DNA from: Candidatus Nanohalobium sp.
Lineage (GTDB): Archaea; Nanohalarchaeota; Nanosalinia; Nanosalinales; Nanosalinaceae
DNA length: 52,003 nt
NCBI GenBank assembly: GCA_042217555.1
Contig: JBDGSL010000001.1
Coordinates: 1-52,003, forward strand
Reading direction: 5' to 3'
Below are positions 30,999-48,192 of this stretch, one piece after another (positions within the stretch are counted from its first letter, which is position 1; each line of letters starts with the position of its first letter). The notes beneath the pieces are model-generated. The model was not told where the DNA came from. It ran no database searches and saw nothing but the letters and a program-made list of their open reading frames with translations. A program made the translations under genes and the position numbers.

Positions 30999-31412
30999 AG
31001 TCTCTTCATTTTTCTCTTACTTTCCTAACTATGTCATCTTTCTACGCAGCCGCGGCGCGATTATTGAAAACAAGGACGGAGAGATACTGATGGTTCAAGA
31101 GGCGAAAGATCATATCCATAAAAAGTGGGACCTACCTGGCGGCGGCTGGGAAGATGGCGAATCAGTCATCGAATGTGTAGAAAAAGAAGTGCTAGAAGAG
31201 ACAGGTTACAGAATAGATGTAACAGGATTTCTAGGCGTCTACAAGGGAGAAAGCATGGATGACGGCACTGAAGTCATCGTTTTCATGTTCGTAGCTAAGC
31301 CAGTAAATAAGGAAACCGAGGACCTTGAAGAAGATATACTTCAGGAGAAGTGGTTCACTCCAGAAGAAATACCGAACCTAGACCTGAGAAAAGATAACAG
31401 GGAAAGAGATGA

Positions 31413-31580
31413 GTAAACTACTCCTACCTTACTCACTTGGTTCGTGAGGACGGAGCTTTCGAGTGTTCTCAGCTTCTAACGTCCTTGCGACATCAGCTTC
31501 ATAGTTCCTCGAATTATCTTTGGGCAGGTTTACAGGGCTACCCGCTAAACTCTTGGTCTCCATATAGGAGCGAGTTACAT
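31413..31580 (-). ncRNA. Putative stand-alone TnpB omegaRNA (reRNA) scaffold
   Basis: Same stem order as the 3' RNA of tnpB at 40.5-41.6 kb: TATAT-loop stem, stem with loop GTAAAC complementary to terminal GTTTAC, then RE hairpin; 5' end approximate. Confidence 0.7.
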
Positions 31581-31688
31581 CAACAAATAAGTATTACAAG
31601 TTTTTTATGTGTTTTTGTTTTGGGCGATTCCTCCCGCTACCTTGATTTCCAAAACGGAAATCGAGGAATGGGACTCCCTCGCCTAAAA
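31413..31688 (-). mobile_element. Non-autonomous 276-bp IS200/IS605 mini-element: LE + promoter-like region + omegaRNA/RE
   Basis: Minus strand LE GGCGAGGGAGTCCCATTCCTCG...AAGGTAGCGGGAGGAATCGCC; RE GAAAGCTCCGTCCTCAC...TAAGGTAGGAGTAGTTTAC, closely matching the RE at 41586-41637. Confidence 0.85.
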
Positions 31689-31743
31689 GTTGAAAGGTAC
31701 CAGAAAGAAGAACCTGGCTCACTGGACCTTCTCTGGAACGACC

Positions 31744-40306: not shown

Positions 40307-41637
40307 TTCTTTGGCGAGAACGCTCCTTCCTCGCTCGATAAACTGCTTCACAGTTTAACTCGATCCTTGTAGATTCCAAATGGAATCCTGCAAGAGGAAA
40401 CTCCTGTGAGGAGTTTCCGAAGTGAAATCTATGATTTCATCGAGTAAGTGAAACGAACAAGGTAGCGGTGATGAATCGCCGGAACTCATAAAAAAAGTGT
40501 TCAGGCCAGTTATGTGTATGCTGGTCGGTAGAACGGTGAAAGCCCGTATCTTGAATCCTACTTCTCGCAAGAAACAGCTATTGGAAAAAGAATACAGTAA
40601 CGCTCAGAAATATGTGTCTGGCGAATCCGAAAACCTATATTCTGCCACCAAACAAGCTATGGACAAATACGCAGGGAAAGATAACGGAGAGGAAAAACCT
40701 CTGTTCCTACGGAACGACACATTTCAGGTAGAGAAGGCAGAAAACACTGAAGAATTTGATTACTGGGCGAAAATACCTGTTCACGATGAATGGGGCGGTA
40801 TTCAAGTTCCAATAGTTCCACACCGAGAAATCAAAGAAGAACGGAGTGTCAAGGACTCCAAAGTCGTGAAGAAAGATGATTACTTTGAGTTACATATTTC
40901 AGTCCGGTTTGAGGTAGAACCTCAGCAGGACTTTTCAGGTGTTTTAGCCGTAGATTTAGGCGAGTCTACCTATGCGACAGCCGTGCTGTCAAGTGATGGA
41001 AGACCACGGTTCTACGGTGAAGACATCCGAGGCATCCGCAGACACTACAGCTATCTACGCAGAAAACTTCAGGAAAAAGGGCTACAGGAAGAAGTGAAAC
41101 GCATCGGACAGAAAGAAAGCAGGACTGTTCGCCATCGCCTCCACGAAATCTCCCGTGAACTGGTGGACTTTGCCGACCAGCAAAACGCCGTCATAGTATT
41201 GGGAGATGTGAAAGAGGTCGGTGGCGACACAGAGAAAGGCAGACGAATGAACCGTATCGCCAACACTTGGGCGGTAGGCAAACTCCGAAACTTCATCCAG
41301 TATAGGGCTCAGGAGAAAGGAATACCTGTTTTCCTTGTAGACGAAGCCTACACCAGTCAAACCTGCCACCGATGCAAGGAGAGAAAAGATACGAACCGCA
41401 TGACGCAGGGAAGGTTCAAGTGCGGTAACTGCGGATTAGACCACTATAACGCAGATGTAAACGCTGCGAAAAACATTCTTGACAGGTTCTCAGCGTATAT
41501 CGTTGAGAACGGGGCTGCTGTGAACCAGCCCGAAACCCAAGCAAGTAACGAACCCGAAGTAAGTAATTTCGACTTTGATGACTTGGGAAGCTCCTTCCTC
41601 ACCGAAGCTTTAGCGAGCTAAGGTAGGAGTAGTTCAC
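40307..41637 (+). mobile_element. IS200/IS605-family (IS1341-like, tnpB only) element
   Basis: LE GGCGAGAACGCTCCTTCCTCG...AAGGTAGCGGTGATGAATCGCC (40313-40480) after TTAAC; tnpB; RE GGAAGCTCCTTCCTC...AAGGTAGGAGTAGTTCAC ending 41637; left boundary approximate. Confidence 0.88.
40518..41621 (+). CDS. tnpB: TnpB RNA-guided nuclease (rearranged RuvC-II type)
   Basis: AVDLG, VLGDV, VDEAYTSQTCHRC, CGNCG, NADVNAAKNI. Confidence 0.92.
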   Translation: MLVGRTVKARILNPTSRKKQLLEKEYSNAQKYVSGESENLYSATKQAMDKYAGKDNGEEKPLFLRNDTFQVEKAENTEEFDYWAKIPVHDEWGGIQVPIVPHREIKEERSVKDSKVVKKDDYFELHISVRFEVEPQQDFSGVLAVDLGESTYATAVLSSDGRPRFYGEDIRGIRRHYSYLRRKLQEKGLQEEVKRIGQKESRTVRHRLHEISRELVDFADQQNAVIVLGDVKEVGGDTEKGRRMNRIANTWAVGKLRNFIQYRAQEKGIPVFLVDEAYTSQTCHRCKERKDTNRMTQGRFKCGNCGLDHYNADVNAAKNILDRFSAYIVENGAAVNQPETQASNEPEVSNFDFDDLGSSFLTEALAS

Positions 41638-43142: not shown

Positions 43143-43505
43143 GTGAAACAGGAGTCTCGTGAGTGGCTGGAGAAGGGTGAGGAAGATCTGGAGGCCGCCA
43201 GGATACTGGCTGAGAACGGCAGTCCCGAGACCTGTATGTTCCATCTTCAGCAGGCAGTGGAAAAGGCTTTCAAAGGATTGTTGATCGAAAGGGAAGAAGA
43301 CTACTCGTTTACTCACAGCCTTCAGAAACTGGATAACGAGGCAGGAAGCCCGGAAAAGTTCAGAAAAATGCTTCAGGATCTCGACACCGCATATACCGCG
43401 GCAAGGTATCCGGATGCTGGCGAGACCGATGTCGAAGAAGTAGATGAAAGAGTTGAAGAAACGGAGGAGTTGTTCAAATGGATAAAAACACAGTTGAAGA
43501 GGTAA
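43143..43505 (+). CDS. HEPN-domain protein
   Basis: FHLQQAVEKAFKG, THSL, YTAARYPD. Confidence 0.9.
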   Translation: MKQESREWLEKGEEDLEAARILAENGSPETCMFHLQQAVEKAFKGLLIEREEDYSFTHSLQKLDNEAGSPEKFRKMLQDLDTAYTAARYPDAGETDVEEVDERVEETEELFKWIKTQLKR

Positions 43506-43807
43506 GGGAACGGCTAATGGAGAAAGCAGAGGAGGAAAACATCGAGCTAGATGAACTGATAGTCTTTGGATCAAGGGCGCGCGAAGATTACAGAGAATCA
43601 AGCGATGTAGATGTTCTCCTGGTATCTCCAGATTTTGAAGACACAAACTACTACAAGAGGCCGAGACCGTTCTACGACGCCTGGAACTACGACAAGCTTC
43701 CTGAACCGGAGTTTATCTGCCTGACACCTGAAGAGTTCAGAGAAAAACGGGAGAAAAAGCCGAATATAGTGAGGACAGCAGTTGAAGAAGGAGTAAGACT
43801 GGCGTAA
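43478..43807 (+). CDS. Minimal nucleotidyltransferase (MNT), HEPN partner
   Basis: VFGSRARED...SDVDVLLV. Confidence 0.9.
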   Translation: MDKNTVEEVRERLMEKAEEENIELDELIVFGSRAREDYRESSDVDVLLVSPDFEDTNYYKRPRPFYDAWNYDKLPEPEFICLTPEEFREKREKKPNIVRTAVEEGVRLA

Positions 43808-43862: not shown

Positions 43863-44948
43863 ATGGGAATCGATGACCGTATCCAGGAACTGGAGGAGAA
43901 GCTTGAGAAGACTCCTGTGAACAAGGCGACGGAGACCGAGCGCGGGAGATTAAAGAGTCAGATCGCCGAGCTGAAGGAGGAGAAGCAGAAGAAGCAGAAA
44001 GGAACGGGTGAAACCAGTGGTTACGCTGTCGAGAAGAAGGGCGATGCGACCGTTGCTCTAGTCGGATTTCCTTCCGTCGGTAAGTCGACTTTGCTGAACC
44101 ATATGACGAACGCCGAGTCGGATACCGGTGCTTACGAGTTCACCACGCTGGACGTCAACCCTGGAATGCTGGAGCACAAGGGTGCGAAGATCCAGATGCT
44201 GGACGTCCCCGGATTGATCGGCGGTGCCGCGGACGGCAGAGGCGGTGGAACACAGGTTCTCTCCGTCGTACGTAACGCTGAGTTCGTTGTCATCATGCTG
44301 GACCCGGAGGAGATGCGTGAAGAGGAAATAAAGTCGGAGCTCTACGACGCCGGTATCAGGATAAACCAGCAGCCTCCGAACATGAAGGTGGAGAAGAAGG
44401 GGCGAGGAGGAATAAACATTTCTACTACTGTCGACCTTGATATCGAAGACGAGACCATCAAGCAGATGATGCAGCAGCGCGGCTACACAAACGCAGAAGT
44501 CATAATAAGAGAGGAGATGGATCTGGACAGGTTCGTCGACGGACTGATGCGGAACAGGAAGTACGTCCCGGCGATAACAGTCATAAACAAGGCCGACATG
44601 CTCTCCGACGAGAAAAAGGAGGAGTACAGGGAGAAATATGACCTTTTGATTTCTGCTGAAAACGAGATAAATCTTGACGAGTTGAAGGACGAGATATTCG
44701 AAGGACTGGACTTAATCCGTATCTACATGAAGGAGAAAGGGGAAGAACCAGATAGGGACGAGCCATTGATTCTAACTTCAGGTTCAACAGTGGAGGACGC
44801 CCTGGAGGCTCTGCCAGGTGACATGAAGGACCGTTTCAAGAAGGCCAAGGTGACGGGAGAGTCATCGAAGTTCCCGGAGCAGAAGGTAGGAATGGAACAT
44901 GAACTGATGGATGAGGACGTTCTGGAACTGAACCTGAGACATTTCTGA
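43863..44948 (+). CDS. DRG/OBG-family ribosome-associated GTPase with TGS domain
   Basis: TPVNKATE, GFPSVGKST, YEFTT, DVPG, NKAD. Confidence 0.95.
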   Translation: MGIDDRIQELEEKLEKTPVNKATETERGRLKSQIAELKEEKQKKQKGTGETSGYAVEKKGDATVALVGFPSVGKSTLLNHMTNAESDTGAYEFTTLDVNPGMLEHKGAKIQMLDVPGLIGGAADGRGGGTQVLSVVRNAEFVVIMLDPEEMREEEIKSELYDAGIRINQQPPNMKVEKKGRGGINISTTVDLDIEDETIKQMMQQRGYTNAEVIIREEMDLDRFVDGLMRNRKYVPAITVINKADMLSDEKKEEYREKYDLLISAENEINLDELKDEIFEGLDLIRIYMKEKGEEPDRDEPLILTSGSTVEDALEALPGDMKDRFKKAKVTGESSKFPEQKVGMEHELMDEDVLELNLRHF

Positions 44949-45180
44949 AGTCCTCTCCGCCCAAGGACGGAGGTTCGCATCAATAATGCTACTACTCCAA
45001 CAAGACGGATTCGGGAACATCCCGAAAGGATTGAGGTTGAGGCTTTCCCTACCACAGAACTTGCGTTGCAGAGGTTCTGCTTCCAACAGGAATCCTGTAA
45101 TGCCCCCTCAGCAGGACACCGATACTGACAGCCACCAAAGGTATTCAATCTCTGGCTTATATGACTGCTTTCTCCATCTA
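44926..45180 (-). ncRNA. Putative divergently transcribed omegaRNA (~235 nt scaffold + guide GAAATGTCTCAGGTTCAG...)
   Basis: Multi-stem region: GGTGTCCT/GGGGCATT stem, GCAGAAC/GTTCTGT, TCGGGA/TCCCGA, terminal RE hairpin; TATA-like TTTATAAG ~25 nt upstream on the minus strand; ends approximate. Confidence 0.6.
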
Positions 45181-45197
45181 ACAAAGAACTGTCACGC

Positions 45198-45217
45198 AAA
45201 ACTTATAAATTTAATTT
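45198..45217. promoter_or_regulatory. Putative bidirectional TATA box
   Basis: AAAACTTATAAATTTAATTT reads TTATAAAT on + (~26 nt before ATG 45232) and TTTATAAG on -. Confidence 0.55.
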
Positions 45218-45231
45218 CATCTATGGGTGTT

Positions 45232-46317
45232 ATGGTTGACACGCAAACCCGACAGTTCAAGCTGAAAATGCGAGAACCCAACACAGAAAAAGAAAAGCAG
45301 TTACAGAAATCGCTTCAACGCTTCAAAGACTGTGTAAACGCTTGGATACAGAAGATAGACGAAATGGATGAATACCCGAAAAGAGGGAACACACACGACT
45401 ACGGATACCACGAAGTCAAGGAAGAGTTTCCGAAGATGTATTCTAATGTTATACAGGAAGCTATGAACCGAGCCATAGAAATAATGCGTAACAGAAACGG
45501 TTCGCTTCCAGAATATGAAGCCGATTCTATGAGCTTCAAACAGGTCGATGTCAAATACGATAGAGAGAATATCGGCATACCTGTAGTCGGAAAGAAAAAG
45601 GTCTGGATGCCGTTGATTGTTCCCTCTTACTTCGGAAAATACAAAGAACTTGACAAAGGAAGGCTACAAGTAGTCAGGAAAGAAGACGGCTGGTATGCTT
45701 ATGTATCGGTAGAATACCCTGTCAAAGACGAGATTGACGCTGACGGAGTTTTCGGAGTAGACCTCGGAATCAGACAGGTAGCAGTAGTTTCGGATTCTGA
45801 AGGGAAGGTCAACGAGTTCTATGGTTCAAACGTTTTGTCAAGAAGGAAAGTGCTTGACCAGAGATGGAAAGCACTTCAAGAACAAAAAGGCGGAGATAAT
45901 AACAAGTATCAAGCCTTGAAGCAGGTATCGGGCAAAGAAACACGGTTTATGGAAGACATCAACCACAAGATAGCAAAAAGCATCGTAGAGAAAGCGAAAC
46001 ACTACAACTACGCCATCGCAGTAGAGAACCTGAAAGGGCTTCGGGAAGGAGAAGCATCACAAACTTTGAAGGAGATGCTTCATCGCTGGCGATATAGAGA
46101 CCTATGCGATAAGATAGAGTACAAGGCAGAAGCAGAAGGAATACCTATAAACTACATAGACCCACGGAATACAAGCAAAATCTGTTCAAAATGCGGAAGC
46201 AAAAACGATGTAGGAGCATCCAAGCAATACAAATGCAGTAGTTGCGGTGTAGAGTTGAATCGAGACCTTAACGCTGCACGGAATATTGCTGAAAAGGGTG
46301 CTTCCTCCCCTGCCTAA
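45232..46317 (+). CDS. tnpB: TnpB RNA-guided nuclease, canonical D-E-D triad
   Basis: GVDLGI, AVENLKGL, NTSKICSKCG, CSSCG, NRDLNAARNI; start 45232 or 45223. Confidence 0.92.
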   Translation: MVDTQTRQFKLKMREPNTEKEKQLQKSLQRFKDCVNAWIQKIDEMDEYPKRGNTHDYGYHEVKEEFPKMYSNVIQEAMNRAIEIMRNRNGSLPEYEADSMSFKQVDVKYDRENIGIPVVGKKKVWMPLIVPSYFGKYKELDKGRLQVVRKEDGWYAYVSVEYPVKDEIDADGVFGVDLGIRQVAVVSDSEGKVNEFYGSNVLSRRKVLDQRWKALQEQKGGDNNKYQALKQVSGKETRFMEDINHKIAKSIVEKAKHYNYAIAVENLKGLREGEASQTLKEMLHRWRYRDLCDKIEYKAEAEGIPINYIDPRNTSKICSKCGSKNDVGASKQYKCSSCGVELNRDLNAARNIAEKGASSPA

Positions 46318-46455
46318 AGGCAAGGGGCTTCCGCACCACTAATCAACTATTGTGACACAGAAACTGGAAGCTCTTAGAACCGGTTATAAACCGTTTTAAA
46401 CGATCTAAGCAGATTTCCCATAACATGTTTATAAGTTTTACTGTTTAATCTGTGG

Positions 46456-47962: not shown

Positions 47963-48192
47963 GGGCTCGTAGCTCAGCCTGGCAGAGCGCCGGCCTTTTA
48001 CTCACTTTGGTTCATCCCAGAAGATTTCGGGACTCGAGGCGTCAGCCGAGAGTGGAACCATAGTGATCGTGACTCGAAACTCCTTGGAGTTTCTGGGTCA
48101 TAAGAAAATCCTTTCGAGGATTTTCGAGAGTCCGAAGGGATTCGGACTAAGAAGTTAGCCGGTCGTCGCGGGTTCAAATCCCGCCGAGCCCG
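47963..48192 (+). tRNA. tRNA-Lys(UUU) with 156-nt intron (48001-48156) at position 37/38
   Basis: Exon1 GGGCTCGTAGCTCAGCCTGGCAGAGCGCCGGCCTTTTA; exon2 AGCCGGTCGTCGCGGGTTCAAATCCCGCCGAGCCCG; BHB central helix CTTT/GAAG; no encoded CCA. Confidence 0.93.

Follow-up and report, generated by a model that had tools for sequence, protein, structure and literature searches.

An archaeal IS200/IS605 clade with inverted tnpB and a predicted HgcC-type guide RNA on the opposite strand

In described IS200/IS605 systems, the omegaRNA is placed downstream of TnpB (PMC10691335), and a four-base DNA guide at the hairpin foot pairs with the cleavage motif (PMC10055086). Homing-type maintenance has been described for canonical TnpB (PMC13565253, PMC10055086). 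Among archaeal RNAs, HgcC of P. furiosus is northern-verified and antisense to a transposase gene, and HgcC RNAs without a transposase are expressed in T. kodakarensis (PMC4247193). Here, we analyzed a locus in a 52,003-nt stretch of Candidatus Nanohalobium sp. DNA (hereafter the window; GCA_042217555.1, JBDGSL010000001.1, contig C1 of a 1.3-Mb genome whose DNA occurs in salt-lake metagenomes). A first-pass annotation had proposed that its plus-strand tnpB, with an intact D-E-D triad, is inverted relative to the transposon ends, and that a guide-type RNA forms a separate, divergent unit upstream. The inversion was borne out by the end motifs and the homologue empty sites, and the separate upstream unit by the layout of the relatives; divergent transcription is predicted from the promoter position.

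Ends, target motif and tnpB of the element

The tnpB gene (45232–46317, plus strand; alternative start 45223) encodes 361 aa, faces the left end of its element and matches PF07282, PF01385 and NF040570. The catalytic residues D177, E265 and D345 (plus-strand codons 45760–45762, 46024–46026 and 46264–46266) are present together with four zinc-finger cysteines, and all are invariant in 25 homologues. The predicted structure (pLDDT 83.7) displays a full TnpB/Cas12f-type fold. Against solved structures, Cas12f was the top match by both sequence and fold (TM 0.74–0.78, with ISDra2 TnpB at 0.68), and the protein scored 148.5 on the Cas12f2 model, for which the cut-off is 450. Sequence and model together indicate a protein of TnpB fold with a RuvC D-E-D triad and a zinc finger. 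As the initial reading had it, the stop codon falls inside a minus-strand left-end hairpin (46297–46337), 10 codons past NAARN, which leaves no room for a scaffold there; scaffold room 3′ of tnpB is likewise absent in every clade member. The gene is flanked by a DRG-type GTPase gene on one side and rps8e on the other. Elsewhere, the window carries a HEPN and nucleotidyltransferase gene pair (43143–43807), a probable toxin–antitoxin module, and a tRNA with a 157-nt insert in its anticodon loop (47963–48192).

End motifs and the guide rule delimit a non-autonomous, tnpB-only IS200/IS605-family element of 1,407 bp (44945–46351), which reads on the minus strand from a left end at 46351 to a right end at 44945. 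The left end (46297–46351, minus strand) comprises an outer stem (46333–46337 with 46297–46301), a hairpin and the DNA guide GAAG (46328–46331), and overlaps the last tnpB codons. The right end (44945–44976, minus strand) contains the DNA guide GAAC (44973–44976), a hairpin (44955–44972) lying 280 nt upstream of tnpB and the terminal motif TCAG (44945–44948). This hairpin had been recognized at first pass, but the end extends one base further than claimed, to 44945, where a related copy from a public sequencing run also begins. The element is inserted in the last codon of the host DRG-type GTPase gene (43863–44948, plus strand), whose stop codon (44946–44948) is supplied by the plus strand of the right end, with the last residue alone altered. 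Outside the element, the predicted guide segment is the minus-strand right flank (44925–44944), which is antisense to the GTPase gene at its 3′ end. Flank sequences of clade loci diverge immediately after TCAG or TCAA.

The position rule that relates guide to cleavage motif derives from IS608. Across the clade, a right-end guide was located in 24 loci and correctly predicted the terminal motif in 21 of them (GAAC giving TCAG, GAAT giving TCAA); one of the three misses (L100) was a script mis-pick, and eight further loci had no located guide. The left-end rule (GAAG giving TCAC, GAAA giving TCAT, AAAG giving TTAC) was correct in 19 of 25 left ends and failed in 6, with four near-duplicates dropped and seven loci lacking a located guide; with labels shuffled, the mean was 9.5, and none of 2000 shuffles reached 19. 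At both ends, the sequences carry subterminal hairpins with DNA guides that match the target and terminal motifs. Seven copies (L013, L016, L099, L102, L103, L104 and L108) target TCAT, which is ATGA on the tnpB strand, and in each the left-end tip is Shine–Dalgarno-like just before the ATGA; these copies may sit before host start codons and supply a ribosome-binding site.

For the window copy, the guide rule and the homologue empty sites predict TCAC (46352–46355, minus strand) as the insertion target and TAM. TTGAT, the target originally named, is present at 46342–46346, but guide GAAG predicts TCAC and the homologue empty site has TCAC; among the clade left ends compared, TTGAT was found in the window copy only, and it probably lies inside the element. 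The empty site of homologue L007 is present in five relatives, where it is joined exactly at the predicted ends, with TCAC as target, an exact case of insertion 3′ of a 4–5-nt motif without target duplication. These empty sites lack the RNA region and tnpB together, as expected of a single insertion. The outcome at the window itself is less sharp: the element is absent after the GTPase gene in 3/3 congeners of the window genome, and because these are 72–75% identical at the site, with the TCAC junction ~10 nt longer than theirs, the site is consistent with insertion at TCAC, not an exact match. Excision at TCAC would end the GTPase at the codon of its orthologues; with a boundary at TTGAT, the reading frame would continue past that codon. 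No same-species empty site was found for the window copy, and contigs from public sequencing runs contained no empty allele of its strain.

No tnpA adjoined any inverted locus searched. One TnpA was found in the window's genome (G000), on contig C11 (15301–16810), and the tnpB that comes after it there contains an assembly gap; this only TnpA found in the genome is a candidate mobiliser.

The inverted layout across the clade

Database searches gave 45 proteins at 41–89% identity to the window TnpB. The 40 that were aligned end a few residues after NAARN, mostly within an apparent translated end hairpin. A single-protein scan of genome contigs gave no match, but alignment-based scans did find loci, which belong to genomes of Thermococci, Methanophagales, Archaeoglobaceae and Micrarchaeota or to metagenomes. 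An upstream, opposite-strand right end was located by motif in 34 of 40 clade loci, with unrelated flanks beyond it, and in two more (L014 and L089) the upstream RNA was detected by covariance model R1. The inverted layout was therefore present in 36/36 clade loci with upstream DNA, four of the 40 lacking such DNA; three duplicate records are part of this count, as are the window and G001. Full inverted elements were identified at three additional loci (L280, L287 and L289). Elements of the clade have been mobile, inserting repeatedly at new sites.

In a quick tree of 71 proteins, thinned from 158 at 85% identity and built without L280, L287 and L289, all 14 inverted rows fell on one side of a branch with an SH-aLRT of 99. 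In the outgroup, 21 of 23 loci were clearly canonical, with a left end of the same type upstream of tnpB; they were classified by eye since the right-end regular expression was too noisy, and the exceptions were one degenerate (L140) and one cut-off locus (L033). Model R1 gave no upstream minus-strand match in outgroup loci L020–L085, and Rfam gave no omegaRNA match in 14 outgroup loci. No close clade member was found in the viral contigs, plasmids or phages searched, or among 401 sampled genomes of the class to which G074 belongs, a set without a positive control. By sequence comparison, the tnpB inversion is confirmed as real and clade-wide, with the inverted loci forming one branch, and the clade departs from the canonical arrangement, in which the omegaRNA shares the strand of tnpB and overlaps or follows its 3′ end.

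The upstream RNA, its promoter region and mini-elements

The predicted omegaRNA scaffold, of a long HgcC-related type, spans 44945–45182 on the minus strand, its 5′ end placed from the AT box. Its loop CTGAGG (45106–45111) can form a pseudoknot of 6 bp, one of them G–U, with the last six scaffold bases (44945–44950), in keeping with the pairing of upstream loop and RNA terminus suggested at the outset. The multi-stem fold suggested alongside it is carried by the relatives: the window RNA folded no better than shuffles (z = −0.80 and −1.05), whereas related RNAs reached z = −2.0 to −6.1 in 9/9 tested. The window RNA had no Rfam match, and so fell short of the gathering score of HgcC (RF00062, 50 bits). 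On R1 it scored 11.4 bits, and the canonical tnpB RNA at 41476–41637 scored 16.3. That RNA belongs to a second, canonical tnpB of the window (40497–41621), with RNA and right end at its 3′ end, to 41637, an internal control. Two related RNAs, C66 of the window's own genome and L017, scored 34.6 and 30 bits on HgcC and 29.1 and 44.5 bits on R1. As the window RNA alone was at chance and had no Rfam match, its relatives had to decide; it is linked to the family by its identity to the G001 copy (82%) and to C66 (68%).

An alignment of 27 relatives (A3, without the window RNA) supported five stems and the pseudoknot: 97.4% of its cells were paired, and both partners had changed in 22 of 39 pairs. 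Only 0–1 of 500 shuffles scored as high, and slid controls were 39–49% paired. Covariation among the relatives' sequences is strong, a figure not to be read as a probability because the structure was derived from the same alignment and its rows are related. The pseudoknot helix was 99.4% paired, and in the long type it has compensatory variants in G001, C66, L017, L282, L306 and C12. Four stems and the pseudoknot, covarying or conserved, lie far beyond the end hairpin. The minus strand is favoured by one-side G–U changes and by weaker folding of the opposite strand. On the homologue comparison proposed at first pass, the upstream RNA and the end orientation are conserved, and the RNA covaries.

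HgcC matched on the minus strand upstream in 13 of 14 loci submitted to Rfam, 7 of them above the gathering score, and L280, L287 and L289 gave 111–129 bits. Canonical tnpB genes, too, have 3′ RNAs that R1 recognizes, that at 41476–41637 among them, so the clade RNA would be an archaeal omegaRNA of ordinary kind at an atypical location. Taken together, these sequences point to a structured RNA that has a 3′ pseudoknot, stops at the right end and is followed by a variable flank, less strongly for the window copy.

Between tnpB and the RNA lies a shared AT-rich, TATA-like box (45202–45211), 29 nt before the tnpB start. The box itself had been recognized at first pass, and its two-way promoter role is predicted from position. 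Of 28 loci measured, 19 have a corresponding box 28–31 nt ahead of the tnpB start and 8 have one 37–40 nt ahead of it, the remaining one being a mis-pick; on the opposite strand, the same box stands just before the RNA. A sigma-70 promoter scan, a model unsuited to archaea, gave nothing above chance. The promoter position suggests that tnpB and the RNA are transcribed divergently.

Mini-elements without tnpB, consisting of a left end, an AT-rich spacer, the RNA and a right end, were found at L277, L278, L279, L282, L290, L295, L306 and the genome's own C66, and they retain the AT box. One full and one mini copy each are present in G075 and in the window's genome, which also contains several stand-alone RNAs. 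Two of its tnpB-less units carry the long-type RNA: one in C66 (2230–2560, L258), with both ends present, and one in C12 (34840–35160, L264), with terminal TCAC and a matching pseudoknot loop. The long-type mini-element of L306 (~1258–1672) is stacked onto a further IS605-type RNA, whose right end (TCAA-C) it immediately follows. In the window, a protein-free mini-element on the minus strand (31410–31690) has a left end, an AT-rich stretch and an RNA-like region, and its right end is similar to the one belonging to the canonical tnpB (40497–41621). A GGCGA/TCGCC left end, as cited in the first-pass annotation for comparison, was found at 31623–31683.

Proposed mechanism, alternatives and relation to known systems

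The explanation we favour, and consider likely, is an inverted non-autonomous IS200/IS605 element whose HgcC-type omegaRNA guides TnpB from its own transcript. An ancestor of the clade would have turned tnpB round between the transposon ends. A Y1 TnpA acting in trans would insert the element 3′ of TCAC. From the central TATA box, tnpB would be transcribed in the direction of the left end, and an HgcC-type omegaRNA from the opposite strand, through the right end and on into flanking sequence that would become the guide. TnpB loaded with this RNA would cut the empty allele (TCAC plus flank) and spare the occupied one (TCAG plus flank), and the cut would lead, through homing, to restoration or spread of the element, by analogy with canonical TnpB. 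Biogenesis would depart from the canonical route, as the guide, being its own transcript, need not be cut from tnpB mRNA. Deletion of tnpB would leave promoter-bearing mini-elements, such as those observed. A bolder extension, possible though we would not bet on it, is that the bidirectional promoter has freed the guide from tnpB mRNA and that mini-elements are mobile, self-expressing guides that retarget TnpB in trans to several genomic sites, a multi-guide, CRISPR-free system. Were this so, it would provide a natural TnpB system near Cas12f in fold and a function for the long-known HgcC RNA.

Several other readings compete with this one. Within the same layout, the window copy may be decaying, with an RNA that no longer folds or loads while its relatives function. 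The poor fold score, the missing Rfam match, the single copy of the element in its genome and the broken tnpB of the G001 copy would fit; against this stand the intact ORF and triad, the preservation of both ends and of the 6-bp pseudoknot, and the occurrence in other samples of proteins 80–89% identical to the window TnpB. Decay seems unlikely. That the upstream RNA serves TnpA end recognition or is a passenger, with TnpB using another guide or none, appears decidedly improbable: the genome does offer four other tnpB genes and several stand-alone RNAs, but the conserved or covarying helices far from the end hairpin, the lack of 3′ scaffold room in any clade member and the invariant triad weigh against it.

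The upstream region could instead encode an N-terminal extension, a 443-aa ORF from 44986. Its frame is open in the window, databases call forms of 416–451 aa, and 11 of 34 loci lack an in-frame stop between right end and tnpB. Stops in the other 23 of 34, three different frames across lineages, 1–2-nt indels in related copies, the TATA-like box just before the short start and base-pair covariation on the other strand render this very improbable; a conserved protein across the RNA region was rejected on the differing frames and the stops. Independent, side-by-side insertion of an RNA mini-element and tnpB is scarcely credible, even though the same RNA does occur in mini-elements that lack tnpB: the same junction recurs at dozens of unrelated sites, one left and one right end enclose both parts, and the L007 empty sites largely refute it.

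In literature searches and in passages of PMC10691335, PMC12558985, PMC4615843, PMC4247193, PMC3124441, PMC13565253, PMC10097598, PMC10055086, PMC10278001 and PMC3119063, we found no description of tnpB facing the left end. Searches and models that expect a 3′ guide RNA would give this clade the wrong RNA or none. The layout removes the overlap of protein C-terminus and RNA, and implies that guide biogenesis from tnpB mRNA is not obligatory. The clade supplies nucleases of 360–370 aa, many thermophile-derived, with natural scaffolds that may be short (about 125–180 nt) and with TAMs (TCAC, TCAT, TTAC) that the left end allows one to predict.

ISDra2 TnpB and the IS1341 group (PMC10097598) share with the clade the RuvC triad, zinc finger and hairpin ends with DNA guides. 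As in ISDra2, the RNA terminates at the right end, has a 3′ pseudoknot formed by an upstream loop and the last bases, and would take its guide from the flank; the ISDra2 TAM is TTGAT, versus the predicted TCAC here. In canonical TnpB the RNA lies on the tnpB strand, overlapping the 3′ end of the gene, and the protein can cut it from its own mRNA (PMC10278001), whereas the clade RNA lies upstream on the other strand as a predicted separate transcript. IscB likewise has its RNA at a transposon end, ahead of the gene for the nuclease, but on the same strand, with a 5′ guide and a need for outside transcription (PMC10055086).

Clade RNAs match HgcC, described with the archaeal sotRNAs (PMC4615843, PMC4247193), at up to 129 bits, although the window RNA is longer, diverged and without an Rfam match. 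The available text of these two papers links HgcC neither to an inverted element nor to a guide role; HgcC RNAs would gain a testable one. PATEs and stand-alone omegaRNA elements (PMC10055086, PMC3119063) resemble the mini-elements in being protein-free with both ends and in being able to encode omegaRNAs acted on in trans. They differ in that the full element of the clade already holds the promoter-plus-RNA unit, which tnpB loss leaves whole.

Cas12f shares a guide scaffold gene separate from the nuclease mRNA, besides being the top sequence and fold match. It has a CRISPR array and a split tracrRNA/crRNA, unlike the one-piece RNA and intact mobile ends of the window element. No CRISPR-like repeats were found in 43 clade loci within 1–6 kb around each. 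The element thus falls outside type V-F CRISPR and, on present evidence, is not a CRISPR precursor; the suggested step toward tracr-like systems is not supported, as the RNA is one piece that ends at the transposon edge, with its predicted guide in the flank. By comparison of sequences, the inverted layout of this IS200/IS605 TnpB clade is real and well supported.
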